Translations under genes and position numbers: made by a program
Notes under the pieces: generated by a model
Seen by the model: only the letters and a program-made list of their open reading frames with translations
Databases searched by the model: none
What the model was told of the DNA's origin: nothing
Assembly: GCA_051294905.1 (NCBI GenBank)
Contig: CM119372.1
Span: 34,102,001 to 34,166,000, forward strand
Direction of reading: 5' to 3'
From: Botryllus schlosseri
Lineage: Eukaryota
DNA length: 64,000 nucleotides
Part shown: piece after piece, positions 1,049-60,223 of the stretch
Position numbering within the stretch: the stretch's first letter is position 1
Layout of the letters: each line of letters starts with the position of its first letter

Positions 1049-4021
1049 CATAGTGTCCTATATGGTATCGACACAAGCAAATCGCACGGTTCAATGAAAT
1101 TGTATCACGTCACAGTTTCCATTTGGCTACAGGCAATTTGACGGTGATTTTTGCCCGACTTGCCGAGCATTAAATTTGATGAAGCGGGTATCAATCGAAA
1201 GCTGACGCTGTACTGCTTGCGAAAATATAAATTTCATTCCACTCATGGCCCTGGAACCCCCACAATCTGCCCCAAATTATTCATTGTCTAGTAGATTGGC
1301 AGTGTGACGCAACAATGATGTCTGGCGAAACGAGAGACTAGCTCAAGAGCAAGGATGCGGCCGAGCGGCGAGAGTGGGATCAGCTGACGTCGCGGCAATA
1401 GCAATGTGCAACCGCGCCACAGAGAAACGCTGCGCTGTTGATACTTTTTCTATGCGTTCCGGTACAAGCGAGCACACACCAGCCTTTCCTTGACTTGTAA
1501 AGGTAGAACTGGGTCCACGGAATGTATTAGGGCCCTACCAATTTTCGCGCAATATCCTTCAGCTGATAGAGATATGTAGTCTACATTGGATATGTCAGAT
1601 TATTATGATATCGATTGCCTTAGCCCGCTTGTTGCGTAAGGCTCCAGAGCAGACTTGGACAACTAGATAATTCTAGTTGTCTAATTTCACTAAATTAGAG
1701 CGAAATGCCAGTAATCTAATTCTAATCTAATTTGTGAAATGTTTCCATGCTCTAATTCTAATTCTAATCTAATTTGTGAAATGTTCTTCTGCTCTAATTC
1801 TAATTCTAATCTAATTTGTGAAATGTCCCTATTCTCTAATTCTAGTTCTAATCTAATTATTGTTTTAATGAAAATGCCTCTTTGTCCGAGGCATATTGCA
1901 CTATTGCGCAGGGAAATCCAGTGCCAAGCCGCCATCGCCTTACTTACACCGTGCAGTCATAGTAGATATTATGACGAATAATAGCCTGCTAGAGTAGCTT
2001 GTAGTCTGCGAACAAAATTCTAGTTTTTAAAACTTTACGTTAGTACATCGCCGTTCTGACTAACATGGGCGATGTCCATGGTTATTATGAAGAAGTAATA
2101 TTGTATTGGTGTACAGAAGTTAATGGGAATGCACTGATGTTGTTGTTGTTGTTTATTGAACAAAAATATGTGGCGCTTATCGCGTGACGGCCTTTTGCAC
2201 CACGCACTGTGATTTGATATGAACTGGATTTTGCTGTGTTCATTTCCCATATACAATTTCATTCAATTTCCAATTTTTTGCGAACTAAGTAGCTCTAATT
2301 CTAATTCTAATCTAATTTGGAAAAAACTTAGTAGCTCTAATTCTAATTCTAATCTAATTTGGAAAAAGCTGTGGAGCTCTAATTCTAATTCTAATCTAAT
2401 TTGGAAAAACTGTGTAACTCTAATTCTAATTCTAGTCTAATTTGAAAAAAACTATGGAGCTCTAATTCTAATTCTAATCTAATTCAGAAAAGCTGAAAAT
2501 TTTCTAGTTGTCCAAGTCTGCTCCAGAGATGCGTGGCGCTGTTGATACTTTTTCTACGCGCTTCGCTAAAAGCGAGCACACACCAGCCTTTCCTTGACTT
2601 GTAATGGTGAACTGGGTCCACAGAATGTATTTGGTCCCTACCAATTTTCGCGCAATCCTTCAGCTGTTAGAGATATTTCTAGTAAGAAAAATATACTTTC
2701 AAGTAATAAGATTCACTCAAGACAGCAAATTTAGATAATGTAAATATATCATATTGTAGTAATACAACTACAGTGTTGAGTTTTCACTCTAGTCCCCATA
2801 AGCACCACGTCGGTGACCTTGCCAAATTCCGAGAAGGCGAAAAAGTGCAAACTCTGTTGGGCCGAATGGACAATGGACATTCAGTTATTCACAGATGCGA
2901 AAAAAATACTGCAAATCCGTTTTAGGTAAGTTACATTAGGAATATATATACAGACTACAGAATGAGTATAATTCAAATATCTGTGATACCACTGTATTAC
3001 TTTTGACGCAAAATATCCCCGGCATTCAAAAAAACTATTTGGTGATTGAAAAATGCTAAACCAAATTCCAACGTCAACGTTTATAGTGATATCAGATATA
3101 TTCCAATGAAAAACAAAGGTATGAATTTGGTGCTAACATTTTGGAATCATTTGGCAGGTATGGCCCGCAAGCTTTCTAGTAACGGATTGAATCCGGACAG
3201 CGATTCCAGTTTAATTCGACACTCCTGCTGTTAAACTTTATTCAACAATCAACATTTTACCTGCTGCATTCGCGGACCAAGTCCCACCCATACGGATCAA
3301 ATAAAAGCTTGTAATGTATGCTCATGCTCAATGCTCCTTGCTCACACTTAACCATAAAAGCGACTATAGAAAGTATCTACACCCGCCATCAACAGCGCGA
3401 CGTGTCTCTGGAGCCCTACGCAACAAGCGGGCTAAGGCAACCGATATAATAATAATCTGACATATCCAATGTAGATTACTTAGACGTAGCCTACATATCT
3501 TTATCAGCTGAAGGATATTGCGCGAAAATTGGTAGGGCCCTAATACATTCTGTGGACCCAGTTCTACCCTTACAAGTCAAGGAAAGGCTGGTGTGTGCTC
3601 GCTTGTACCGAAACGCATAGAAAAAGTATCAAAAGCGCAGCGTTTCTTTGTGGCGCGTTTGCACATCGCTATTGCCGCGACGTCAGCTGATCCCACTCTC
3701 GCCGCTCGGCCGCATCCTTGCTCTTGAGCTAGTCTCTCGTTTCGCCAGACCGCATTGTTGCGTCACACTGCCAATCTACTCGACAATGAATAATTGGGGG
3801 CTGATGGTGGGGGTTCCAGGGCCGCGAGCGGAATAAAATTTATATTTTCGTAATCAGTGCAGAGTCAGCTTTCGATTGATATCCGATTCATCAAATTTAA
3901 TGCTCGGCAAGCCGGTCAAAAATCACCGTCAAATTGCCTGTAGCCAAATGGAAACTGTGACGTGATACAATTTCATTGAACCGTGCGATTTGCTTGTGTC
4001 GACACCATATAGGACACTATG
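1049..4021. mobile_element. Non-autonomous foldback element with ~630-bp TIRs, P/Galileo-like
   Basis: Ends CATAGTGTCCTATATGG...CCATATAGGACACTATG; 7-bp direct repeat GTTGAAC at 1042-1048 and 4022-4028. Left arm 1049-~2547 (interrupted by a MITE) is the reverse complement of ~3388-4021. Internal direct duplication ~1431-1575 / ~2535-2676. No transposase ORF. Confidence 0.8.
1650..2520. mobile_element. hAT-type MITE (871 bp) nested in the foldback left arm; present in all three units
   Basis: 18-bp TIR CAGACTTGGACAACTAGA; 8-bp TSD CTCCAGAG (1642-1649, 2521-2528); subterminal arrays of CTCTAATTCTAATTCTAATCTAATT. Confidence 0.93.
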
Positions 4022-4339
4022 GTTGAACACAATGATTTATCATTGATTCATGAACATGACCACGACCATGCACCATTGGTGCGGGTGAAACGTTCATGTG
4101 GAGTCGATTTGAGCGTTCAATTGCAACTTTCTAACCCTGTATAGTCCCACCGTTCTCTCAATTTTACATGTGTTACATAAACTATAAGGAAAGACGACAC
4201 GAAAACCCTACAGATATCGTTAATACGTGATAGAATGCATAAATTTGATAATCAGGTTAAATCTCTCTAACAAAATGGCGAAACGCATGAGCATGTACAT
4301 TGTATACATTGTACAATCAATGAAGAGACGTAATCGAAG

Positions 4340-5483: not shown

Positions 5484-6978
5484 ATGCGTGTACTTTTAAT
5501 GACTCTTGTTTGGCTATTGCTTCATAACGCGGAATCGAGTGAAGTACCGGGAACGAAAGGCGCTGAAGATTCTGGATCACCGTCTGTCGACGGCAACGAC
5601 CCACAAAACAGTACATTACCTTCGAACAAAAAAGATGAAAAACTACCGCCTGGACATGCCAAAGGCAATAGCAGCAGTAAAATTAAACCTAAAAAGAATA
5701 ATGGTGACAAAGGTGGAATAAAGAATATGAAAGTCCCCGGTGAGACAAGGCAAGTGTCGCTTCTGAGCAGTCACTCACGTTATGCGAAACACTGTCCGTC
5801 CCTGGCATTCGATTTGCGTCGATAAGAAAGGTTAATGGGGTCCCGGGAACCTTTATTTGTGTTGATCATCACGCCAGTGTCAACTTCTTTGTTTCATTCG
5901 ATGGGTAATGATTCACAAGGAGTTGACAATAGGCCATCTACAACAGCAAGCATGTAAAGTAGGCTACGAGGTGTAAAATGTCAAAGGATATGTCCACCGT
6001 CAATGCAACCTCTATAACACCAACGAAATTAAGTTTGCAAAATAAATTTGACTTTGTTAACAATTTTGACAATATTTTGACCTAACACTACAATTTTTAC
6101 AAAATTTTGACTTTTCAGCCACGTCAAAATATAACTGTCCTAGTTAACATGTATACGATTTAGATTTTAACAGCATTATTTCTCAGCAATATCTTTCCCT
6201 TGTTTTTTAGGTACCACAACTGTCCACCAGGATGGCGCAATTGCGTCCAGAAGTGAATCTGCCCACACAGGTAAAATATCCGCCTCTACTACGGAGTAAT
6301 GCGCAGCACTCCCATATTATGCATTGGAAGCATCATGTGAAGAACTTCCTCTTTACCTACGTCACAAACAGCTTAGCCTTAACTACCGCTTCCACCTCAG
6401 ACGCTACTAGGCCCACGAACCCCCACCAATAGAAGTTCTCGAAGGCACGTGGCATGAGATATACAGCATCATGAACCCAAAATTCAATACCCCCAACATG
6501 ACCAGGAATGCCACGTCTCCCAATAACCTCGTACTGGAAAGAAAATCGCATCCAGATTTCACGACATGGTTGATGCAATCACAAAACGTTGATCTAGACC
6601 TGACAAATATCATTAAAAAAGGCATCGCACCTCTGTCGCATAAACCCATAGTCCTGGACTTCATATTCGAACGCTATAACGAAGTCATTGAAATATACAC
6701 TTGACGGCTTTAAATCAACAGAAGGAGCCGGTTATGCGTTTACTATCCCGTCGCTGATGATAAACTTTTCTGAACCTTGTTCGATTTGTTGTAAATGGGT
6801 CTCCTTAAAAGCATCTTGGGAACCACTTCTAGGTGTTGAGTCCTTGATTTGGCACCTTTTCGTTAAGCATACATTAGGCAAATTTATGTTTGCCTACGAT
6901 AATTATCAAAAAATACACATTTATTTTGCAGAACTCATTGACCAATCCATGGAGGGGACGAAAATTTGCTGTGAATAA
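5484..6978 (+). CDS. Predicted 3-exon gene A, 120-aa secreted low-complexity protein (exons 5484-5739, 6211-6270, 6932-6978); may be a truncated pseudogene
   Basis: Signal-peptide-like MRVLLMTLVWLLLHNAES/S. Donors G|GTGAGA and CAG|GTAAAA; acceptors tgttttttag and ttattttgcag; both introns phase 1, giving ...KVP-GTTTVHQDGAIASRSESAHT-ELIDQSMEGTKICCE*. The copy-3 indel in exon 3 is in-frame (+GAT). Confidence 0.55.
6275..6770 (+). mobile_element. Degenerate non-LTR retrotransposon fragment (I/Nimb-type; RT C-terminus to RNase H start) in intron 2 of gene A; also ~27990-28485 and ~52820-53315
   Basis: Frameshifted translation IRLYYGVMRSTPI/ALEASCEELPLYLRHKQLSLNY...IEIYT/DGFKSTEGAGYAFTIP, resembling the RL..GAMRSTP..AL..E..ELPL.LR and IYTDGSK...G.G.AF motifs of I-group LINEs. 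Confidence 0.8.
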
Positions 6979-7328
6979 TCGGCATACGGGCAAAATCCAT
7001 TATTTTCTATAATTAAGTCGTGTCGGTGATTGTGTATAAGTATTTATTGCATTTCATAATTATTTCGATACGGAGAAACCTGATTATGGATTTGGTGCGA
7101 GTCTTATGCGTTATCTGAAAAGATAGCGAAGTAATTATTCAACGCTCATTTGTGTCTACTGCATACTGATAATTGACTGCTGTGTGATATTAAAGAGTGT
7201 TGCGCAGGCTTACGTGTTACGTGTGTGCTTGCTCAATATTTGCAAGAGGGTTCGAACCTCCGTTACTTAGCCCAGCTTGATCGTTACGCCAGAAACAGTA
7301 ATATCGATTCCAATCCCGATATCCACAC

Positions 7329-7972: not shown

Positions 7973-9259
7973 CAGAGGTGGTCAAAGTAGTCAAGAAAGC
8001 TACTCAAGTAGAAGTAGAAGTAGCGACGAAAAAATCTACTCAAGTACGAGTAGAAGTACTTCTTCCATAAGCCACCTAAAACTACTTGAAGGAAAGCTAG
8101 AATTGACTGACGTTAAATTTACTCAAGTAAGTAAGTGGTTTTGAAAACAGTCTCAATTCGTTCGCACGGACTGTCAAATGCTGCAAATTGAGCTATGCGG
8201 AAGATGCAGAGAGATTGATTCGTATTGATGCATCCCAGGAGGTATCAATTTGCGACAGAAGAAGCATTCTTTAGCATCATGGGATGCAAATGATAGTAAT
8301 GATATGAAAATGCGATATTAACCTTGTTTACTAAGAGACACCATTTTAGAGAATATCATGGCATGGCGCCCTACATCATGTTATAAGGCCCCAAGTTTAG
8401 GCGAAGAGCAATACGTAGAAGTTGCATCGGATACGGTTTCAACATTTTGCGAGATTGGTATACAAATATTGTATGCAAATTAGTATACAAATATTGTGGA
8501 TCGTAAAATTTATATTTAGTGTAGCTTTATTTTCGGAAAATAGAGGCATTACTACACTTGCTTTTATGCTTCAACATGTATATTCTGCAGACAAAAGAAC
8601 TGAAAGTAATTAGAACTCAAAGTATGATACTCTGAGTATCATACTCGGAACTGCAATTGAAATACAAATACTTCAAACACTTCTAAAAAGCGGAAAATAT
8701 ATTTCATGTCTTTTGTTCATAAAGCTTCAAAGGTAGGTAATCTGCTAAAAAAGGCGTAGCGTTCCAAACAGCCAGAATTTCCAGATTAACAAGACACGTC
8801 ATGGGCTGCTAGATAACGATAGGTAATTGCTAAATTGCGAAACGGTGGTTTCAAACGCCATATTTACTGTGATGAAATATTTGATATGGGTGACGATGCA
8901 GTATGAGCGGAACCATAAGCAATCTGGTACCTAAATTATATTCATATATTTGGCATTCCATATACTGTGCGCGAAGCGCAATAATATTTCTGGGCTTTAC
9001 TTTACTTTTTTAATATTAAATGGTGGCCCTCCGTGAAACCAGCCCCGAAATTCCTCAGGCTATCTTTCGTATTGGGGGGTTAAACTACTTCTACTTGACA
9101 AACTGAAAATAGCGAAAAGTAAGTAAGTAGATCACAAAATATTACGAAGTAGTAATAGAAGTAGAGAAAATCATATCTACTTGAGTAAGTAGCAGAAGTA
9201 GAGGAAAACTACTTCAGTACTTCCAAAAAGTAGAAGTGCATCGTTACTGACCACCTCTG
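7973..9259. mobile_element. Non-autonomous hAT element (1287 bp); in all three units
   Basis: TIR CAGAGGTGGTCA; TSD GTTATAGG/ATTATAGG (one mismatch); AAGTAG/CTACTT subterminal repeats. Confidence 0.88.
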
Positions 9260-11663
9260 ATTATAGGCTACATGATGAAGAAAAGGATTAATTCAATTGT
9301 CCGAATTTTTCGCTGCTGATGGTGAAGATTAATTTTACGGAATGACAGTTTTAAAGTTGCAACCCTCTTACGGGCCGTGGTAATCTTTATTATTTATCTT
9401 GAGCTAATATGTTCACACCACACGTTAAGACTATCCATGAGTTTTCGAACGGTGAGCATCGGGCGGGCCACTAGTAATTACTTACTTAGTTAAAGCATGC
9501 TGTTTTGTCGCGACTTCCGGAAAATGTTGTCGCCACTCAAAAGTTATCTCACGCGTACCACAACTCAATAAAAAATTGGTAAGATACGCACGGTTCCCAA
9601 TTTGCATTTATTCACAGCGCGCAAAATTTATTCCTCTGCTTCTTAGCATTTGTACCGTGGGACTCAGATTGCAATTAATGAGCCATCCCGCGCGATCTTA
9701 GGACAAGGTTCTAACGCCGGCGATATTTCTGGGATCGCACTTCGTGTTGGCTAAGACATATCTGCCTTGGTGTGTCTTTTTAGCGCCGTAAAGCTGATAC
9801 CTAATAGTCCCGCAACCGCTGGCAGCACACGCATATAATTAGATTCAATTCTGAATATCGTGCGTTTCTTTATTCAGGCCTATTTTTTGATTTTTTGATT
9901 TATCAAGAGGCGGGCACGCTATAATTAACATACCACTGAAACCATATATCGCGCAAAGCGCGATGAAAAATTTCAAGTCGGATACATATGGTCAATAATA
10001 ATAAACCTATATTAAGTTTTGAAAAATGTTCAAAAATTATTGGGAGCACGGCCCCATTCTCCCAGTCCTGGCGACGCCAGTGCTATTGTATATATACATA
10101 GGCCTATGTATTAATACCGCTAACAGACTGTTTTGCGATATTAAAGAAAGCTCGGTGGATTTACATGCGTGCTCAATACTTGCAGGAGATTGTAAGACAC
10201 TAGTACATGTAGTGTTTTGAGGCAGAAACTGTATAATATCAACTGCAAATACATATAATTACACATTATTGAAATGATAATAACGCAACCCCTTCATAAG
10301 AAAACAAAAATCACAATTCGAGCTCATAACATTATGTCGCTTCGGTACGTCGATTATACTTCCTTCTAGATATACATAGCTAATCGGAGATAATCAGATA
10401 AGCATAAAACAGGAATACTAGCGACATACAATAATATACTAAATATGATCCAGAGACGGGTCAATACAATCATCGAGATTTTTGGTTTCTGATGGGAAAA
10501 AATGTTAGCGAATGACTTGTTGAACGTGACAACTCCCTATGTATGGGATCTGGTAGTCTATAAGGACGATTATACACTGCTTACGCCTCTATACCGACAA
10601 CAGCTCACCATCGCTTCTGAAATCAATAATGGTGACAATATCAGAACTTATTGCCAATGAGTTTACATCCCTGTCGGTATACATGCCAAGGCGATCACAC
10701 GAAGACGAAGACGGTCATTAAATCTGTTTGTTTGTTTGAGGTATTCATTGTGTTTGTCGACTACTTTGTACATTTACACCACGCCAATTTTCTTCATTTT
10801 TATTCCGTAGCTGCCGACTTGTAGCACTGCCCACTTCCAGGCTTTTCATAAGACACCGCTTACGCGGATAAGATGGCGAGGATGAGCCTGGATAAACCTC
10901 CAACACTTAGGTAATTAAATCTCTATTCGCAGTCGACTAGTCACGAAACATCTTAGGGTTCACGATTATAATAATTATTAATTGTAATCACTGGTTTGCC
11001 TGGAAAATAAGGATCACTTCGTGGAATAATTTTGAATTTCCTGAAGAGTTCAACCCAAGCATTGCTCACCGAGGACTGACCGGTATAGCTGCGGTACCGG
11101 CGGATAGAATATAATACTAATCTGTGTGCTGCGTAGGCCTGCGGAACGCGCATCCCCCAAACTGAAAAGAGAGTGGCCTCTCACTGTCTTCGAGCTTCAG
11201 ATCCATATTTTAGTCAGTCTGACGTGGAATGCATAGTGCGGACGCTATACAAAATGGTAAATGGTAAGCGAGTAACAAATTGTGCGAATCCCTGGTTTAG
11301 TTAAATGCCTTGAATGAGCTTGAACTCGCCCGGCAGCTACTTTCCACCATAACGTTGTAGCAAACTACAATGAATTGGCGAAGTATAAATGAAAATTAAT
11401 TTCAAGGTCAGTGGCCATATCGATGTTCATTACTCACCCTCAAGCGGAATGCTTCGGATCCGTGTTCAGACAGCACAATCGAAAACAGAATTCCCATTTG
11501 ATCAGGAATCCTAACTGGATTGGATCCGGATCTTCAATAACACGACCCTTGCTTGTGTAATTATAATTGAGTCACCGCGGTACGCCCGCGAAGCAATTTC
11601 AGGTTATGCTCGACTAATTCATAATTATTCACTTCGTTGCACGCATCTAGCCGTTGAAATATC

Positions 11664-11815: not shown

Positions 11816-12326
11816 CAATTTTCACAGTCGATAACTAATGAAAATCGATGTTTATGTGAGTAACGTAAACTAGCGATAGTCTACACTACATACGCATTTG
11901 GGCTTTGGGCTTTCCCAAGACGATATAGCTCTTCAAAATAACTTGGCGTATTCGTAGCCATTACTGCGACGAGCTGATGTGGATCAGGTGGGAATGAACT
12001 GGTATTAAGTATATTTGACTTGTGGTCATCAACGTTTCGGGATGCGTGCTAAGGTAGGCCTACCCAATAAAATGGTTCTACCCGTCAGTCACTCGAGAAG
12101 GTTATCGAATATTTGCACCGAAGGTCTTTGTCCACTAAGCGTCAGTAAATAGTTTTTCGTTTTATGGCGGTAATTTTAATATGAAACTGTCGCTCTTTTC
12201 CGAAATGTAGCCTACATGGTTATCCCAAATCGAGAAAATCAATGCTTATTGACTGCACAACAAAACGGTATGTGAAACTTGACCTCAAGCTGTCGACAGG
12301 GCTGTTGAAATGAAGGCAATTGTTGA

Positions 12327-13675
12327 CTATTGGCGGGTGCTGTAATGCGCCCAAAAAGTGAAGCCACTTGACACCACTGTTAACCCGGATAGCATGTGCA
12401 GCTGGATCGATACGCATGCAAGATCTGTCAAGATATAAACGATCATTGTACCACAGGCCAAACCAAAAGTTTGCACGACGTAAGCTGAATTGTGATCAAT
12501 AAAATAGGTACCGGAAATCATATAGGCCTACACAGTCACTCTACGTAGAGCGTGCGTCGCACCCATCAGGATAGCCAGAACGGTCCGTGGACATATTGTG
12601 CGACCTAATTGACGGTTGCCAAATGGCAGCCACTGAATATCCAGATGCTTCCACCACCAAACTCAGTATCAGTAGAAATGGCATCGGTGTGTAATTTCCG
12701 AGTGCGGTTACCGATGAACAGACAAGGAATGAAGTATATACGTGACGAACAAAACCTTATCTAAATGATCAACACCGAGCACACACGAGCCATAAGCGCG
12801 TGACATGTCCGACCAAATGAAACCAGCAATGAAGCCTTGCTGCAATAGGGCTGGAATGGTCAGCAAACCTGGCTTTGAAACCACGTGACGAATCAAACGT
12901 TAAAATTAATTTTTACAATCTACCATCAATTCCGTGAGATACCCCAAATTTCTATTTTCGCTTGACACGGCATACCATTGAACCAATATATACCCAGTAC
13001 TTGAACTCCGCAACATAAGCACAGGTACATACGTATAGAAATTAACGTCGGTACCAATTGTCTACTAGAATCAGTCGCAAACGCGTAATCAGACGGGCAA
13101 TCGTTTGCTGCGCGTTTTGTCAAGTCACGAGTCGAGTCTGAGAAATTGGTGAAGTCATCAGTGATTTCCCTTTTTAAGAACAAGTCAGGCACAAGGCTGA
13201 AGATAGCTTGACCCAGCCCCAGAATGGCGACGAATATTCCGACAGCCGCTTCAGTACCGACTTGTTTGTCACTTGGCTGCGTCGACTGCGATATTGATGA
13301 GATTATGACTCCGAGTGCGGGCATTATTAGGCCCCCGCCGACACCCAGCAGCATGCCTGCGGGCGTTACAGTCCAAAATCGAGGGTAGCCTATAGCAACG
13401 CTAGAGTAAATAACAACGAAGGAACTTGGCCTAAATGTAAGCACGCTTTCTTCCCCAAAATACTAATAATTGGTACGTAAATCAGCAGTGTCACAATGCA
13501 GAGAGCTTCGTAAACCACTACACTAATCGATCCCAGTTCCCAGTGCGCCCTTCACTCCAATGCTTCACTGTAAGGCAGTAAGATTGTACTGCAGGCCAGC
13601 AACCATTGCAAAGCCAATTGAAACTTCATAAATGCGTAGTTTAGCGGACATTGCTCTTCGCCCCAAATCCACCAT
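12327..13675 (-). pseudogene. Intronless UNC-93-like (UNC93A-family MFS membrane protein) pseudogene
   Basis: Reconstructed: MVDLGRRAMSAKLRIYEVSIGFAMVAGLQYNLTALQ*SIGVKGALGT/...ILGKKACLHLGQVPSLLFTLALL/YPRFWTVTPAGMLLGVGGG...AANDCP...LLTIPALLQQGFIAGFIWSDMSRAYGSCVLGVDHL...SGTYFIDHNSAY...LACVSIQLHML. Collinear with recalled UNC93A motifs; ~450 codons; several stops and frameshifts. Confidence 0.85.
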
Positions 13676-14491
13676 TGTAAATCATATAAGCTGTTGTGTG
13701 CATATTAGATATGCAACACTCCGTTAAAATTCAATTGTGTGATCGATTATGAGCTGGTCTGATCGTATCAAACAATCTCGATTGTCGTCATCCAATCGTG
13801 ACTATGCAAGTGTATAGGTAGGGCTGTTGAAAACAAAAAAAAATTCTTCCAAATCTTTCTTGCTACCTGATTAAATTGTCAGGTTACCAAAAAAAAACGA
13901 TGCACACCAAATTTGACTCAATTCCAACCAGCAGATGCCGAGTTCTTACAAATTGAAATTTTGGCCATTTTTTAAATAACAGTATTTACGGTGGCAAATT
14001 TCGTCACTCCAACATGACGAAAAATCGTGTTCAAGGCATGCCCGAAGGCGCAGGGATGCTTTTTCTACCCGTTTACATCTTGACAAGGGCCTATGGTAGA
14101 GTTTGGATTTTAACATCGTCAGTTAACGAAAAAAAAGATATGAGACGGATTAGCTGGAAATAAGTCGACTTCATTGAAATAGCTACGTGCAAATGATGGT
14201 GATATAATTTGCAAATAAAATCCCTTTCACATTAAAATTAACGACCACGGAAACGAAATAAACTGACAAGCAGGTAAATACACGGTCAAATATATTTCTC
14301 AATTGATAGTTACGATTAGTAATCGTAATCGATTACGACGATTACAGCATTTTCAAGTAATCGTAATCGCAATCGATTACATTTGAAAAAATACCGAAGT
14401 AATCGTAGTCGTAATCGACTACTTCACATATCTAATCGATTTATTTGTTCATGAACGATTACTTTATATGAGTGCCTTTATTTTGTACATG

Positions 14492-16723: not shown

Positions 16724-17681
16724 ATGCGAGTCAAACTGATGGTGTTCATCACCATTGCCACCCTTTTGACCAACGGGACATGTTCGTCCGATACTGAAGA
16801 AAGTAACAGATATCGTTCTGACGGTTTGTAAATGATAAGTTCGACATCAACTGAAAACGACAAATTGCAAGTAATTCCAGGTGCACATGGTGGTGAAATT
16901 ACCCCTGTGAAGTGGTCTGCTGCGGCAAAGAATAAACTGCAATCGGAAATATCTTACCGTCATGAAGACCGCATGGCTGGCAGAGAGACACGGTAAGCAA
17001 ATATAGGCCCTACCCGAAGCGACATTTCTGCGCAACTCATTTGCAGAATATTTTCGCATAACGTAACTCGAAGGTCTCGAGATCTTATTCAACAGTTATT
17101 CTCCCATTATTTAGTCAGTCGGATACTTAATTTCCTTTTTTCCCTTCATTTTAAGAGCATGGCCTTCTATAAAAGCAGGAACATCCCCCCTTCATAAAAT
17201 GTACCGAGTTTTCATTCTCCGGAGAAATACATCTCCAATTATCGGCGATCCCATTGTGGTTAAAATTGAATAGTAGATTCATATTGAAATACACCCGCAT
17301 ATTTCGACTGACACTCGTCAGGGATACTCGTCAGCAAATAATAGAGAATTGGAAATAACATTGTATAACAGCAATCGCATAACCAAATCTGACGTCACCA
17401 GCATAAAAAGAATAATTGAGGCGAAGAGATCGCTTAACGACAATGTAATATTTACATGGTAGCGTACTCGAACTTCTTCTATTGGCACAAACTAGGTTGG
17501 TATATTTTGATACAAATGGGTAAAATTAGCTCCACAGATGATACTCTGAAATTATGCGGAAAATGTAATTCGATTTATGCCACACCCTCATTTTGTCATC
17601 ACAACTAGAATGGTTATGAAGTTCCTATATTTATTTTCTTCTACTTGCAGCTATCATCCCGATGTACCCGGATGGCCTTAG
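16724..17681 (+). CDS. Predicted gene B, 80-aa secreted peptide precursor (exons 16724-16823, 16881-16992, 17651-17681), or a pseudogene
   Basis: MRVKLMVFITIATLLTNGTCS signal-like N-terminus; 57-nt GT..AG intron that removes an in-frame TAA; strong donor CG|GTAAGC; strong acceptor ttttcttctacttgcag; ends ...MAGRETRYHPDVPGWP*; AATAAA at ~18304. Confidence 0.5.
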
Positions 17682-34040: not shown

Positions 34041-35389
34041 CTATTGGCGGGTGCTGTAATGCGCCCAAAAAGTGAAGCCACTTGACACCACTGTTAACCC
34101 GGATAGCATGTGCAGCTGGATCGATACGCATGCAAGATCTGTCAAGATATAAACGATCATTGTACCACAGGCCAAACCAAAAGTTTGCACGACGTAAGCT
34201 GAATTGTGATCAATAAAATAGGTACCGGAAATCATATAGGCCTACACAGTCACTCTACGTAAAGCGTGCGTCGCACCCATCAGGATAGCCAGAACGGTCC
34301 GTGGACATATTGTGCGACCTAATTGACGGTTGCCAAATGGCAGCCACTGAATATCCAGATGCTTCCACCACCAAACTCAGTATCAGTAGAAATGGCATCG
34401 GTGTGTAATTTCCGAGTGCGGTTACCGATGAACAGACAAGGAATGAAGTATATACGTGACGAACAAAACCTTATCTAAATGATCAACACCGAGCACACAC
34501 GAGCCATAAGCGCGTGACATGTCCGACCAAATGAAACCAGCAATGAAGCCTTGCTGCAATAGGGCTGGAATGGTCAGCAAACCTGGCTTTGAAACCACGT
34601 GACGAATCAAACGTTAAAATTAATTTTTACAATCTACCATCAATTCCGTGAGATACCCCAAATTTCTATTTTCGCTTGACACGGCATACCATTGAACCAA
34701 TATATACCCAGTACTTGAACTCCGCAACATAAGCACAGGTACATACGTATAGAAATTAACGTCGGTACCAATTGTCTACTAGAATCAGTCGCAAACGCGT
34801 AATCAGACGGGCAATCGTTTGCTGCGCGTTTTGTCAAGTCACGAGTCGAGTCTGAGAAATTGGTGAAGTCATCAGTGATTTCCCTTTTTAAGAACAAGTC
34901 AGGCACAAGGCTGAAGATAGCTTGACCCAGCCCCAGAATGGCGACGAATATTCCGACAGCCGCTTCAGTACCGACTTGTTTGTCACTTGGCTGCGTCGAC
35001 TGCGATATTGATGAGATTATGACTCCGAGTGCGGGCATTATTAGGCCCCCGCCGACACCCAGCAGCATGCCTGCGGGCGTTACAGTCCAAAATCGAGGGT
35101 AGCCTATAGCAACGCTAGAGTAAATAACAACGAAGGAACTTGGCCTAAATGTAAGCACGCTTTCTTCCCCAAAATACTAATAATTGGTACGTAAATCAGC
35201 AGTGTCACAATGCAGAGAGCTTCGTAAACCACTACACTAATCGATCCCAGTTCCCAGTGCGCCCTTCACTCCAATGCTTCACTGTAAGGCAGTAAGATTG
35301 TACTGCAGGCCAGCAACCATTGCAAAGCCAATTGAAACTTCATAAATGCGTAGTTTAGCGGACATTGCTCTTCGCCCCAAATCCACCAT
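34041..35389 (-). pseudogene. UNC-93-like pseudogene, copy 2
   Basis: Same ORF fragments and lesions as copy 1. Confidence 0.85.
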
Positions 35390-41957: not shown

Positions 41958-44900
41958 CAGAGATGGAAGTCGGGCCGGGCTTTTCGGGTTCGGGCCGGGT
42001 TCGGGCCGGGCTCGGGCCGGGTTCGGGCCCAAACTTATAAAAATTATCGGGATTGAATCGGGCCGAATAGTCACTACGAAAAGCATTGACTTCATTTACA
42101 AATTTGATTTGCAATTTTGTTCGAAAGTGGCACAACTACATATAAGACACACCAATACCATATCACGTAAGTATGGCAATATCTGTGAATAAATTTTATA
42201 CGCAGTACGAACCCAGATAAACTTCATTATAAGACGGCCCGAAGACTATGATTGAATAATGAAACAATGTCAGCTAAATAGTAAACAAGTGTCCCAAATA
42301 CGCCAGACATTGATCATTGTTCAGGCCACATTGTGACGAAAACATGACTTACGGATGGATGGATTACCATGCTGGAGCCTGGATTACTACCAATTTAGTT
42401 ATAATTTCGATGTGGCATGCTGAACTGAACAGCTAGAAGCAAGTGATGAGACGACGGCTTCCGTTGTGGCACAGCAGAATTGATCGATAGATGTGTTACG
42501 GCGGTGTTAATATTTATTAAAGAAAGCTTTTAGATGCGCCATAGTGATTTTGTCGTCCATGGTGAATTGCTTTAGGTCTATACGGAAACTAACTTATATT
42601 GTATTAGGCTATGTGACAGCGGTAGTATTGTTATATAGTAGGCTACACTAACAGTAAATAATGCAGACGACACATGAATTATCAAAAGAATTGCAAAGAC
42701 ATCCAGAACGATTTACGTTTTCTCCTGCTCCAGGTCGATCAGAGTTTTGGAGGACAATGAAAGTCGTAGCACGGCGTTGTCAGCTTACTAATGCTGTAAT
42801 TGGTGTCACACCGGAAATTTTGACCGGAATAGTTTCATGCGGTGTTTGCAAACTAGTATTAAAATACGATTGCCAAAAAACAGGGTCGTCCCATATCAAG
42901 CGCCATTCCGAACATTGCAAGCCTGGGTCTCATGGGAAAAAGAAGCAGCAGCTAATGTTACAGTTTGCAAATAAAACGCTTAGACTAAGCGAATCTGAAA
43001 AGCTGGACATAAAAACTGCTGAATTGGAGTTTTGCGTTCGTGGCTATCATGCCTTTCAATCAGTTGAAAATGACGGCCTGATCAAGCTATTACAGCAATT
43101 TGTGAACATGTCCGCGACGCATGGACGTTTTAATGTATCAGACGTGATATATGGACGTAAAACTATATCGTTATATTGCAAGGAAAAAGCTGCAGTAATA
43201 AGGGAAAGGACAACAGAGGTTTTAGTTGAACCACAGTTAGCCGAAGCCGTCGCAGTAACGTTGGACTTGTGGACGGACGAATACAAGCATACGTCATACC
43301 TAGACGTACACGTCTTCTGGATTGATAAGTCCTATGAACTGAAACATCAAGTTTTGGCGGTACGTCATTTTGGGACTGAACGTCACACTGCTGAAAATAT
43401 TTCACGGGTTATACAGACTATATTGGCTGAATATGCTATTGATGCTTCAAACATTACGGCAACTACCGACCACGGTGCAAATGTTGTCGCTGCCTTTCGA
43501 GTAGGAATGTTGGAAACGTCCGCACGCCTTGACTGTATGGCACATAGGCTACACACTTGCTTCTCAACCATGTGGTCACGGGTATGCACTTCACAGTCAG
43601 AATTGCTCGATTACGATAACAATGCATCTTCTCTGGTAAAGTATTGTAATCAAGCCTCCGGTGTGCAGGAACAACTGCCCGTGTCGTTGAAAAAAGGCTC
43701 GTCAACTCGGAGATGGCAAGGCTATATTGATAGAGCATATTCCATCAACGAAAGTTATGAAGCTTTGGTGCGCATTCTTTCAGAACCACACAGAGACCGC
43801 ATGCAGCTCATAGCATCTGTTAATCGAAGAATGAACGCGGAAATTTTACAATTCATGAAACCATTCGGCGATATATTTGATGTTATGCAATTTAATTCCA
43901 AACCAACGATAGGCTACGCCGTGCTAGCGTATTATAAGGCGTTTGAACTTGCAAAACCTTGCCAGAATGACCATCCCGTTATCAAGGCCATGAAGACAGA
44001 ACTTAGACAACTTTTGGACACAGTATATTTTAAATCTTCGCTGAAGGCCCATCACTGGCTAGCTACCTTTCTCGATCCAAATTTCAAACGATTTGAATTT
44101 CTGCCACTTATTAGTAATGAAGAGGTCTCATTCAAGATAAGATTGCTCTCGGACATTGATAAATGGGTAATTGAACACATGGAAAAGGTTGCCGACAATA
44201 GCCCAGGAAATCAAGACTATGTTCGATCAGAAGCAAGAGAAATGCGACCAATCGAACTTGATGATCCATTCTCCCAATTTCGCGACGGTCTTGACAGACA
44301 TTCTGCTCCAAGCTTCGCTTCGTCTGACAGTATCAAGCGAAACTTACTTCAGGAACTTCAACGGTACAAGGAATACCAAAATGCATCATCGCACCCCAAT
44401 CCGCTGAACTTCTGGAGAAACCATGAACGGGACTTTCCAACGCTCTCCTGGGTGGCTAGAAAGATGTTTGCAGCCCAGTGCTCAAGTGCGCAATCCGAAA
44501 GAGATTTTTCTTCGTGCGGTCTGACCTTGTCGCAGAGACGAACCCGACTGTCTCCAGTAACTGTTGAGGCTATTGAAATAATCAATTCTTCGTATAACGT
44601 GTGAATGCAACGCCCTTTGTATGGATGACATTTGACTTGTATTTTGAACAGACTATTTTTTCTCATCTTGGCCAATTTCATTCCTTTATTTCTTTAATTT
44701 AGTTTAATATTGAACCATTTAATACAGTTCACATTTTGCAAAAAGCATGGTGGAACTAAGTTAACAGTGGGGCTGTTTTCAGCGTATTCTCATTCAGATA
44801 TATTAAGTTCTCTTGCCATGTGCAAGATTGCTATCAAAAGAAAACAAAGTGAGAGCATTGAAAGCGTTGAAAAGCTCGAAATTTGAATCGTATATCAGCT

Positions 44901-45055
44901 TATTTGCTCGCAACAGTTGAAAATTGCTATTTGAACTTGGTTTCGGGCCGAAACGGGCTGAAAACTCGACCGAGGGGTTCAGGCCGGGTTCGGGCTGAAC
45001 TTGTCGGGTTCGGGCCGGGTTCGGGTCCGGCTCACCCGGCCCGCTTCCATCTCTG
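41958..45055 (+). mobile_element. Apparently autonomous hAT DNA transposon (Ac family, Hermes/hobo-like), 3098 bp
   Basis: Perfect 12-bp TIR CAGAGATGGAAG / CTTCCATCTCTG, extending as (T)CGGGCCGGG. 8-bp TSD TGCAGGGC at 41950-41957 and 45056-45063. TTCGGGCCGGG-type subterminal repeats at both ends. Copy 1 has a single TGCAGGGC (empty site, ~20234-20241). Confidence 0.97.
42661..44604 (+). CDS. hAT transposase (BED zinc finger, DDE catalytic core, C-terminal hATC domain), 647 aa, intronless
   Basis: CGVC...HIKRHSEHC BED finger; TLDLWTD and TTDHGANV (two catalytic Asp); CMAH (CxxH); TRRW; FLDP; PLNFW...FPTL; SSAQSERDFS (catalytic Glu). Motif order matches Hermes-type transposases. Confidence 0.96.
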   Translation: MQTTHELSKELQRHPERFTFSPAPGRSEFWRTMKVVARRCQLTNAVIGVTPEILTGIVSCGVCKLVLKYDCQKTGSSHIKRHSEHCKPGSHGKKKQQLMLQFANKTLRLSESEKLDIKTAELEFCVRGYHAFQSVENDGLIKLLQQFVNMSATHGRFNVSDVIYGRKTISLYCKEKAAVIRERTTEVLVEPQLAEAVAVTLDLWTDEYKHTSYLDVHVFWIDKSYELKHQVLAVRHFGTERHTAENISRVIQTILAEYAIDASNITATTDHGANVVAAFRVGMLETSARLDCMAHRLHTCFSTMWSRVCTSQSELLDYDNNASSLVKYCNQASGVQEQLPVSLKKGSSTRRWQGYIDRAYSINESYEALVRILSEPHRDRMQLIASVNRRMNAEILQFMKPFGDIFDVMQFNSKPTIGYAVLAYYKAFELAKPCQNDHPVIKAMKTELRQLLDTVYFKSSLKAHHWLATFLDPNFKRFEFLPLISNEEVSFKIRLLSDIDKWVIEHMEKVADNSPGNQDYVRSEAREMRPIELDDPFSQFRDGLDRHSAPSFASSDSIKRNLLQELQRYKEYQNASSHPNPLNFWRNHERDFPTLSWVARKMFAAQCSSAQSERDFSSCGLTLSQRRTRLSPVTVEAIEIINSSYNV

Positions 45056-47592
45056 TGCAGGGCATGCTGTCAGTCAGGATTTCACACATTCAGTTTGTAA
45101 GATCAATCCATCTCAGCTTACTTAATGCCTACATCACACTGTTAATTTAAGATCCATAATCGCTCTTGATCCTGCTCTGATATCATTGTGAAGCACGCCA
45201 TTTAAAGCTTTGTGATACAGCTCAACTTATTTGCGATGAATGCTGCAAAATGTTCGCATGATAGAAAGGATATAAAGGGACGCAAACGCCCAGTGAACTT
45301 CTTTACATTATGTACTGCAGCAGACTAAGCTGACCAAGCCTATGATTAATCGATGAAATTGCACTGAGAAACTATATAACCTCGGAAATAAAATCATCGT
45401 CATGGAGTTAGGTCAGCTGCTGCAAATAACTGAACATGGCTCGTGTACCGATCAATGTTCCCTCTAAGCTGCGCACGTTCGCAATTTCGGACTGCCGACA
45501 CGGTCTCTGCGCACATAAAATTTAAGCTGCGCACAAAAATTCCGAAATGATGACCTTTTTCTAGTCGTTATGCACTGTTTTCTAAGGGACCGCGCAGTGA
45601 GTTAGTGAGTGCGCGCAGACTCGTGAAAAATTAGAGGGAACATCGGTACCGATGCAGATTCTATTAGAGGGCGCACTGGGTATATTTTCCCTCACTTGTC
45701 TTGAGATTCGCAGGCCTGTGTTGTGTTTAGCTTTACATAACGAGTCCAATTTCCGTTTTGTAGTCGGATAAGTGGTTCATAAAGTGGTCGCCAGCGTCCG
45801 GCTGGGTGACGTTTACGACCTCGAATGGGGTTGATAGCTACAATTTGGGCGGTCGGGGGCGCTGAGAGTAAACGTAGGCTGTTTGACCTATGAGTAACTG
45901 TTTGGGTGAGTCCTTGAATTAGAGCTCTCTCTGTGCGCCAATGTAAGATTTATGAATTTATGATCACGTCGTTCACGGTCGTACAAGGTGGATTCAATCG
46001 AAAATCGTCACGCACGCTCTCCGCATATGTTCATTGTGAAGGAGGATTGAGTGTTCTAACTGACCAAACAATCAATCAAACAACGAATAGACTAATTATT
46101 CAGTGACACTTATTGTACGATTGTTTTCACTGACTGTGTCTGTCCGGAAATTCGTACAAAAAGGGACAGATCAACGCGAAAAATCTATGCGACAATGCAG
46201 TGACTGTGCAATGAGCCAAATACCTTTTTTTTTTTGGGGGGGGGGGGGGGGGAGCAGGAAGGGGCTAGGGACTGTTCGATACCTGGTTTGCTGTGGAGGT
46301 GGTCGATGTGCAGAAAAAGTTTGGCAAACACTGCTCTAGTATAACGGGCTGATTACCAACGTCCAAAACAGGCAGGCAGGTTTTCCCAAGCATATAATTG
46401 CAATAATATTGCACGTGCCTAGCCCAAGGAACTGAACGAGATCATTCCGACGGTGTCTAGATGCGCATAACTTGCTGGCGGCTGGAATAAAACGACTCTT
46501 ATATTTCTAGTCTAGGAGCAATGGTTCCCAACCGCCTGTCCGTGGCAGCTTCCTGCCGGTCCGCCAAATGAACAATAATATTATATACCAGTTCCAAAAC
46601 GCGAGAAGTTGTGCATTATTAAAGAAGTACGACTTCAAATTTTAAATTGATTCAGGGTATTTCTGCATAGTGTCGTAATAGGGAGCTCATTGTCTACTTT
46701 GGTCGTACGTCACAATCAGGACCATAACCGCCGCACCCCAAACCCCCCAACAAATATCGCCTACATGTAGCGCGGAAAACGTATGTCACGGCGGGGGTAG
46801 GGGGTGTGGAGGGCCTAAGACCAACATTTTGGGGGTGGCTGACGAAGTGCTGTTTCAGCGCTGGTCATAATGATACAAGTGTTGTGCGAAACTGTTTGAA
46901 AGTAGCCTACTACTTCGAACAAGTTACGGAGATTTTTTAACAAACTTCGTTAATTTCCGACAGCGCAATCAAGCGACACTTCGCAGTATAATAAAATCTA
47001 TAGGAGGGGTGGACAGACCTGCTTCATGTGCGAACCTCATAAAAAAATCTTAATTTTAAGAAAGCCACAACCACAACAAAAAAAATTCAAAAATACGAAT
47101 TCATTTCGTCATACAGAAATGTGGGGTATCGAATGAAGTTTACTATAGTGTGATGATATGGTGCGTCTCCATCTGGGCTGCAAGGTGTTTGAAATCAGGC
47201 TGATATGATGTTGAATCAGTGCGGAGCAATTCCTTCAAGTTATAATAAGCATTTAAGGTAGATTTCAGCTCGGTAATCACAGTACTTCGTAAATCCGTCT
47301 TCGTTTCAAGTTAGGCTACTAGTTTTGTAATTCTCAGGCGGATTTTGATAGATAAGACACATTGGCTTATACCTTCATTATCACTGAATGCAAACTCTTC
47401 CTCTCATTCTGTTTTGCAAGGTTTATATTCCTGTTCATACTTTCTTTTATTTTTGCAATTATCGCTCAACGACATTTTCTTGGTCAAACTCTGCAGTTAT
47501 TGCTACCCTTTACAATGAAAATAGAAGATCCGTATTCACCATCTTTAGCCCAGAAATGATGTGAACTGCGCTGCCGTGGTTAACCGTTGAAC

Positions 47593-58874: not shown

Positions 58875-60223
58875 CTATTGGCGGGTGCTGTAATGCGCCC
58901 AAAAAGTGAAGCCACTTGACACCACTGTTAACCCGGATAGCATGTGCAGCTGGATCGATACGCATGCAAGATCTGTCAAGATATAAACGATCATTGTACC
59001 ACAGGCCAAACCAAAAGTTTGCACGACGTAAGCTGAATTGTGATCAATAAAATAGGTACCGGAAATCATATAGGCCTACACAGTCACTCTACGTAAAGCG
59101 TGCGTCGCACCCATCAGGATAGCCAGAACGGTCCGTGGACATATTGTGCGACCTAATTGACGGTTGCCAAATGGCAGCCACTGAATATCCAGATGCTTCC
59201 ACCACCAAACTCAGTATCAGTAGAAATGGCATCGGTGTGTAATTTCCGAGTGCGGTTACCGATGAACAGACAAGGAATGAAGTATATACGTGACGAACAA
59301 AACCTTATCTAAATGATCAACACCGAGCACACACGAGCCATAAGCGCGTGACATGTCCGACCAAATGAAACCAGCAATGAAGCCTTGCTGCAATAGGGCT
59401 GGAATGGTCAGCAAACCTGGCTTTGAAACCACGTGACGAATCAAACGTTAAAATTAATTTTTACAATCTACCATCAATTCCGTGAGATACCCCAAATTTC
59501 TATTTTCGCTTGACACGGCATACCATTGAACCAATATATACCCAGTACTTGAACTCCGCAACATAAGCACAGGTACATACGTATAGAAATTAACGTCGGT
59601 ACCAATTGTCTACTAGAATCAGTCGCAAACGCGTAATCAGACGGGCAATCGTTTGCTGCGCGTTTTGTCAAGTCACGAGTCGAGTCTGAGAAATTGGTGA
59701 AGTCATCAGTGATTTCCCTTTTTAAGAACAAGTCAGGCACAAGGCTGAAGATAGCTTGACCCAGCCCCAGAATGGCGACGAATATTCCGACAGCCGCTTC
59801 AGTACCGACTTGTTTGTCACTTGGCTGCGTCGACTGCGATATTGATGAGATTATGACTCCGAGTGCGGGCATTATTAGGCCCCCGCCGACACCCAGCAGC
59901 ATGCCTGCGGGCGTTACAGTCCAAAATCGAGGGTAGCCTATAGCAACGCTAGAGTAAATAACAACGAAGGAACTTGGCCTAAATGTAAGCACGCTTTCTT
60001 CCCCAAAATACTAATAATTGGTACGTAAATCAGCAGTGTCACAATGCAGAGAGCTTCGTAAACCACTACACTAATCGATCCCAGTTCCCAGTGCGCCCTT
60101 CACTCCAATGCTTCACTGTAAGGCAGTAAGATTGTACTGCAGGCCAGCAACCATTGCAAAGCCAATTGAAACTTCATAAATGCGTAGTTTAGCGGACATT
60201 GCTCTTCGCCCCAAATCCACCAT
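58875..60223 (-). pseudogene. UNC-93-like pseudogene, copy 3
   Basis: Same ORF fragments and lesions as copy 1. Confidence 0.85.

Follow-up and report, generated by a model that had tools for sequence, protein, structure and literature searches.

Two short insertions at TAGGC(C)TA words in an UNC-93-like pseudogene of Botryllus schlosseri as probable excision footprints of a TA-targeting transposon

The stretch of DNA analyzed here (the window) comprises 64,000 nucleotides of Botryllus schlosseri (NCBI GenBank assembly GCA_051294905.1, contig CM119372.1, positions 34,102,001 to 34,166,000 of the forward strand) and is filled by three near-identical tandem copies of a unit of 21.7 to 24.8 kb, with identities between 99.7% and 99.9%. 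Because of this triplication, each feature of copy 1 is present three times, and motif counts were therefore restricted to one non-redundant unit of 21.7 kb. An intact Hermes-like hAT element of 3.1 kb (41958 to 45055, plus strand), with 21-bp inverted ends and an 8-bp duplication (TGCAGGGC), is found in one tandem copy only and was therefore recently mobile; its open reading frame (ORF; 42658 to 44604) is intact and encodes a Hermes-like product of 648 aa (E = 5.9e-37). In addition, a hAT-like element at 7973 to 9259 shows 12-bp inverted ends (CAGAGGTGGTCA) and a near-perfect 8-bp duplication. A 620-bp repeat occurs in two inverted copies (93% identity; 1042 to 1649 and 3406 to 4028) around two 42-bp tandem arrays, with TAGTCTA in one copy and TAGGCTA plus 15 extra bases in the other. 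On the plus strand, positions 5486 to 6980 hold exon pieces of signal-peptide type and, after them, a frameshifted fragment that resembles a retroelement RNase H.

The minus strand carries an intronless UNC-93-like (MFS) pseudogene, running from an ATG at 13651 to a TAG at 12329 to 12327 (feature 12327 to 13651) according to a frameshift-aware alignment to its closest homologue, P0001. This homologue was the one protein matched by a stop-free fragment of the pseudogene (12989 to 13387) used as the query; it is intact and 433 aa long, and it is collinear with the pseudogene without introns, 291 of the 430 codons in the frameshift-aware alignment being identical. No relative closer than P0001 was found (1 of 512 candidates, P0001 alone among 8000 scored, and 0 of 3 further), and two metagenome scans for the DNA of this homologue gave no match. 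The next homologues, P0002 to P0006, are 34 to 40% identical to P0001. P0001 had no Pfam match and the two scanned fragments of the window gave no UNC-93 match; the UNC-93 (PF05978) cut-off was passed by 7 of the 12 scanned homologues, among them P0002, P0003, P0006, and P0007, and phmmer E values against full-length matches passing this cut-off ranged from 1.8e-98 to 1e-46. Moreover, the best Atlas clusters for P0001 were UNC93-like (0.98). Judged from these homologies, the gene is UNC-93-like, as recognized in a preliminary description of this DNA, and belongs to a divergent branch of PF05978 in the MFS clan. A scan of ∼6% of RNA run X24, one sample only, gave zero depth over 11944 to 13841.

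Nine lesions were counted against P0001 in the frameshift-aware alignment, namely, three motif or TA insertions and six others without the motif (three stops, +7, +4, and -1), with two further in-frame length differences in a variable loop left out of the count. Reading along the minus strand, an in-frame TGA (13565 to 13567), where aligned homologues have Thr/Ser, is followed by an exact tandem duplication of 7 nt (ACTGGGA twice; 13531 to 13544, insertion at about 13537 to 13543), by a +5 frameshift at TA-GGC-TA (site 1; 13386 to 13392, the additional bases at 13388 to 13392, target A-TA-C), by a +2 TA/AT duplication (12987 to 12992, +2 at 12990), by two in-frame TAA stops (12908 to 12906 and 12902 to 12900, from the alignment to P0001), by a -1 lesion (12735 to 12736), by a +4 insertion of less sharply defined position inside the odd palindrome ACGG-A-CCGT (12581 to 12589), and by an in-frame +6 insertion at TA-GGCC-TA (TAGGCCTA) that creates a TAG stop (site 2; 12523 to 12530, placed by alignment at 12528 to 12533, target G-TA-T). 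The preliminary description had listed only three of these nine, and those three were confirmed, as the intact homologues aligned to the region gave indels of +5, +6, and +2 at the predicted positions. The +2 at 12990, previously read as a bare TA duplication near 12986 to 12992, was placed by P0001 and by four of the five homologues P0002 to P0006, and removing one TA/AT unit there was the best of 48 repairs; this lesion may reflect either a bare duplication of the target or slippage within a TATA run. The +4 in the odd palindrome and the +7 tandem duplication resemble hAT-type hairpin or 8-bp-minus-one footprints as described in excerpts of PMC5873905. Two kinds of transposon may thus have visited the dead gene.

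At site 1, the minus strand reads TAGGCTA from 13392 to 13386, in the context CTA TAGGCTA C CCT. All six closest homologues (P0001 to P0006) placed a +5 insertion, TAGGC, at 13388. Removal of GGCTA tied first among 57 distinct 5-nt repairs, whether scored against P0001, the top six, or all 19 aligned homologues, and the tie represents a synonymous one-base shift. The repaired reading is LLYPRFW, the same as in P0001, so that the earlier claim that this removal restores the frame was borne out. In addition, the segment holds 25 residues in 122 of 127 aligned homologues, which is the repaired length. On these alignments, site 1 is unambiguously a +5 insertion lying exactly on TAGGCTA, and we regard this point as settled.

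At site 2, TAGGCCTA lies at 12530 to 12523 of the minus strand, in the context GTG TAG GCC TAT. A +6 insertion was demanded by all six closest homologues, and the segment is exactly 16 residues long in 113 of 127 homologues and longer in 0 of 127, compared with 18 codons in the window; an intact homologue with residues at the insertion, which would have spoken for ancestral sequence, was thus absent. The length of the insertion, +6, is certain from the protein alignments, and its exact letters are ambiguous. Against P0001, removal of GTGTAG or TGTAGG scored 87 and removal of GGCCTA scored 83, ranking 4 to 5 of 44; the proposal that removing GGCCTA repairs the gene therefore stands for the lost stop and the fitting length and falls short in the ranking. 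Likewise, of the two TAGGC(C)TA insertions originally claimed, the one at site 1 and both lengths (6 of 6 homologues) were upheld, whereas the letters at site 2 were left ambiguous by these two scores. The resulting readings are ...RRVTAY for GTGTAG removal and ...RRVTVY for GGCCTA removal, and P0001 itself has RRVVAY. Because the Ala-Tyr of P0001 equals the motif's own GCC TAT (Ala-Tyr), the letters at site 2 are not fixable from the protein.

This ambiguity leaves room for an alternative in which site 1 is a true scar and site 2 an unrelated 6-nt insertion (GTGTAG or TGTAGG) ahead of an ancestral GCC TAT, the motif being formed by accident. Taking out such a hexamer gives the highest repair score, whether against P0001, the top six, or all 19 aligned homologues, and the GTGTAG placement was favored over GGCCTA by five of six homologues; the closest homologues have Ala/Ser ahead of the aromatic residue (VVAY in P0001, Ser/Ala at the same column in P0002 to P0005). 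However, the gap to the scar reading amounts to one Ala/Val change, which is one transition away, and Ala of P0001 corresponds to Val in the pseudogene at 3 of 32 positions. Since the site-2 column moreover has Val in 14 of 127 homologues (Ala in 8 of 127), Val at this position is plausible. The accident would also require an untemplated hexamer to produce the TA-N4-TA word with the greatest excess in the window, and to do so in the context which that word prefers. Motif removal thus appears the more economical reading of site 2, which on this comparison is very probably a motif scar, and an accidental motif is improbable.

The same letters appear in contigs of other studies, which shows that the lesions are no assembly errors. 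An X5 contig (11817 to 13625) and an X6 contig (11917 to 13923) span both sites, the former with one other letter and no gap and the latter with two other letters and one gap, and an X7 contig spans site 2; the motifs are kept in every case. Being nearly identical to the window, these contigs give little information on population frequency. The base at 12548 is peculiar to copy 1, with the other letter common to copies 2 and 3 and to X5, X6, and X7. The sole gap of the X6 contig undoes the -1 lesion at 12735/12736, and as the scars are present in this allele, the -1 lesion is younger than both of them. The two scars are disabling in kind, one as a frameshift and the other as a stop, as previously stated, yet they may have fallen in an already dead gene: given the six previously unlisted lesions, either scar is at most a candidate for the inactivating event. 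No unscarred allele or parent-gene DNA over either site was found among the contig matches listed or in the metagenome scans. In X5 and X6, short contigs of ∼84% identity with 7 gap letters over 13418 to 13662, which stop before site 1 with ends at 13418 and 13427, point to a same-species paralogue that is probably without the +7 duplication. Programmed removal of the motif was also considered and found unsupported, as no contig without the motif occurred among the matches listed.

Both scars are letter-identical in all three tandem copies, and those of copy 2 (34237 to 35106, minus strand; scars at 34237 to 34244 and 35100 to 35106) and copy 3 (59071 to 59940, minus strand; scars at 59071 to 59078 and 59934 to 59940) are not independent events. 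Copy 3 alone shows a further event of this type, independent and recent, in which TA has become TAGGCTA on the plus strand (+5 nt; 47312 to 47318) at a T-TA-C target. In the non-redundant unit, TAGGCCTA was seen 4 times (0.14 expected) and TAGGCTA/TAGCCTA 8 times (1.62 expected), counts that were reached in 0 of 300 shuffles for either word. No enrichment was seen in the same unit for TAGGTA (11 versus 8.05 expected) or TAGCTA (3 versus 4.49 expected), which fits a three-base overhang. TAGGCTA is present on both strands, with 8 in the unit, an observation expected of any dispersed asymmetric word and so weak alone. The empty site was R-TA-Y for 12 of 12 motifs in the unit versus 71 of 283 other TA-N3/N4-TA words (Fisher p = 1.3e-7), and T-TA-Y sites, outside R-TA-Y, belong to the copy-3 event (47312) and to a motif at 42605. 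At the inserted sites, the GGC/GGCC core is no copy of flanking DNA, and a single TA is left after removal at site 1 and at the copy-3 event, as well as at site 2 under the second-best repair class.

The eight five-base scars, at 364, 3487, 5960, 9264, 12208, 13386, 19562, and 19834, all read TAGGCTA followed by C, and core orientation may depend on the flank (a small sample of eight, about p = 0.06 by hand estimate). The scar at 9264 seems older than the hAT-like element at 7973 to 9259, since the 8-bp duplication of the latter takes in the first letters of the motif. Compared with paralogous repeat copies, the motifs at 3487 and 19562 sit within bigger insertions of 15 and 34 nt, respectively. 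A single TAGGCCCTA at 17004 to 17012, at an A-TA-C site, is possibly a longer scar. TAGGGCCCTA (1528 and 3533) was rejected as a longer scar, as a third copy of the repeat family has a substituted version of equal length.

The word is not always an insertion, however. Within the hAT ORF, the two TAGGCTA copies at 43545 and 43910 keep the reading frame and align to Hermes with no gap, both in an R-TA-Y context, and by this alignment they are coding sequence. Two motifs in this ORF compare with about 0.15 expected by chance (hand estimate), a result that speaks against the excision reading; the element as a whole carries four TAGGCTA (42605, 42639, 43545, and 43910), above chance. The earlier proposal that the pseudogene shows the motif to be an insertion without recourse to the copy-3 event thus holds for the homologue alignments and does not extend to these two copies. 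An assembly artefact, or a common word coinciding by chance with ordinary frameshifts, could draw on them, and also on the ∼1.6 of 8 TAGGCTA in the unit that are expected randomly. On the other side, site 1 is bridged gap-free in X5 and X6 and site 2 in X5, X6, and X7, and the insertion length agrees with the motif at both sites. Moreover, the pseudogene holds exactly two motifs, each on an insertion of matching length, for which chance would be ∼1 in 10,000 (hand estimate); we consider this explanation negligible.

We think it likely that a cut-and-paste transposon that duplicates TA and has GG(C) ends left both lesions as footprints of its excision; the element, its ends, and the overhang chemistry are what we infer. 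Such a transposon would target TA (R-TA-Y preferred), duplicate it, and have been inserted twice in the gene and later excised. Its transposase would nick inside the element ends (GGC...GCC), so that the donor keeps some element DNA as 3' overhangs. Three-base overhangs paired across a central mismatch would yield TA-GGC-TA or TA-GCC-TA (+5) upon end joining, and overhangs paired by the self-complementary GC would yield TA-GGCC-TA (TAGGCCTA, +6), the terminal GC allowing this two-base overlap because it is self-complementary. One set of GGC...GCC ends could thus account for both scar classes and for the lack of shorter forms; an alternative overhang would be two-base GG. That excision footprints can disrupt coding sequence is textbook knowledge. 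By analogy, the chemistry of the parent is most likely IS630/Tc1/mariner-like. In Sleeping Beauty and mariner, according to excerpts of PMC6943129 and PMC7827188, the nick in the non-transferred strand falls three bases within the element; the donor is left with 3' overhangs of three bases, and their end joining gives TA, three terminal bases, and TA in either orientation.

A search of positions 1 to 46543 for TA-flanked GG...CC inverted ends found only the inverted repeat at 1042 to 1649/3406 to 4028 and pairs of scars. A stretch of ∼270 bp at 13821 to 14091, with TA on both sides, a GGGC start, a GGCC end, and a G-TA-T site, is partly high-copy and without matching inverted ends; it is a weak lead for the parent element. 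That no parent was found in this search would suit a transposon-free process, in which staggered cuts made by a host enzyme at R-TA-Y gain GGC from a repair polymerase or telomerase-like activity before they are joined, as would the single orientation (TAGGCTA-C) of all eight five-base scars, a small sample (about p = 0.06 by hand). To our knowledge, no host activity adds GGC at R-TA-Y cuts, and the parent search covered 46.5 kb only. Furthermore, Tc1/mariner-type elements are described in excerpts of PMC6943129 and PMC7827188 as leaving, on excision, a few fixed bases between two copies of TA. We hold the host-enzyme process to be very improbable compared with transposon excision.

As for named elements, no paper was found with TAGGCCTA or TAGGCTA as a footprint word in a search mainly of literature outside subscription journals and Repbase Reports, and no GGC-ended TA-duplicating animal element is named in excerpts of PMC9179366, PMC3673617, PMC4122938, PMC8533490, PMC5753468, PMC4423477, PMC7325037, and PMC5873905. 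Several candidates were rejected. The terminal inverted repeats (TIRs) of Sailor start GT/CC and its duplication is TATA, according to excerpts of PMC8533490; ISL2EU duplicates AT at A|AT|T (excerpts of PMC4482050), versus empty R-TA-Y sites in 12 of 12 motifs; PIF/Harbinger elements have a 3-bp TWA duplication and usually precise excision, versus a 2-bp TA and a retained core in the scars; and a hAT footprint would carry an 8-bp duplication with flank-derived hairpin bases, versus a GGC/GGCC core that is not flank-derived.

A parent outside Tc1/mariner, for instance a PHIS-type element (Harbinger/ISL2EU-related) with GG ends and TA duplications, overlaps with the preferred explanation and differs from it in superfamily. 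IS4EU elements of Repbase have TA duplications and occur in marine invertebrates and fish. In addition, ISL2EU TIRs usually begin with GG and those of NuwaI with GGG (excerpts of PMC4482050), and, within PHIS, the PHISTA elements known from rust fungi duplicate TA (excerpts of PMC12730594). Nevertheless, the ISL2EU target is A|AT|T rather than R-TA-Y (excerpts of PMC4482050), and PIF/Harbinger elements generally excise precisely, with no end bases left (excerpts of PMC4561436). A parent outside Tc1/mariner is thus rather unlikely, and Tc1/mariner-like excision is still the preferred reading. More speculatively, and with doubt prevailing, an undescribed, still or recently active GG(C)-ended TA-targeting family with PHIS-like ends and mariner-like excision may have written many 5- to 6-base insertions across several invertebrate lineages and be a main source of small frameshifts there; at the extreme, the agent would be a transposon-free host enzyme writing GGC into R-TA-Y.

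What is new here is the protein-based proof of this word as an insertion, clean at site 1 and probable at site 2. The intact homologue gives the ancestral state, and a very common short word is thereby seen to arise by insertion at TA, so that its occurrences could be read as traces of earlier transposon visits. With two scars in the 1.3 kb of a dead gene and 12 in 21.7 kb, traffic by the putative element would have been heavy. The predicted signature (TA duplication, R-TA-Y target, and GGC...GCC ends) makes this putative element directly searchable in the full assembly.

Compared with the UNC-93 family, the window gene is a pseudogene with nine lesions and lies on a divergent branch. In the PHIS group (ISL2EU, Nuwa, and PHISTA), TIRs usually start with GG/GGG and one lineage duplicates TA, according to excerpts of PMC4482050, PMC4122938, and PMC12730594; in contrast to the predicted parent, ISL2EU duplicates AT, PHISTA is described from rust fungi, and PIF/Harbinger elements mostly excise precisely. 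Stowaway MITEs and plant mariners leave a small duplication plus element end bases that can disrupt coding sequence (excerpts of PMC4561436), a likeness to the present scars, but these are plant elements with known parents and presumably other end bases. A close resemblance in form is to the Sleeping Beauty/Tc1-mariner footprint (TACAGTA or TACTGTA), which likewise consists of TA, three bases, and TA in both orientations with a +5-nt frameshift. Such footprints are described in excerpts of PMC6943129 and PMC7827188 as the first or last 2 to 4 bases of the element, to which the window scars are comparable. The scars differ from those of Sleeping Beauty in their core, GGC/GCC/GGCC rather than CAG/CTG, and in the palindromic +6 form, which makes up 4 of 12 in the window.
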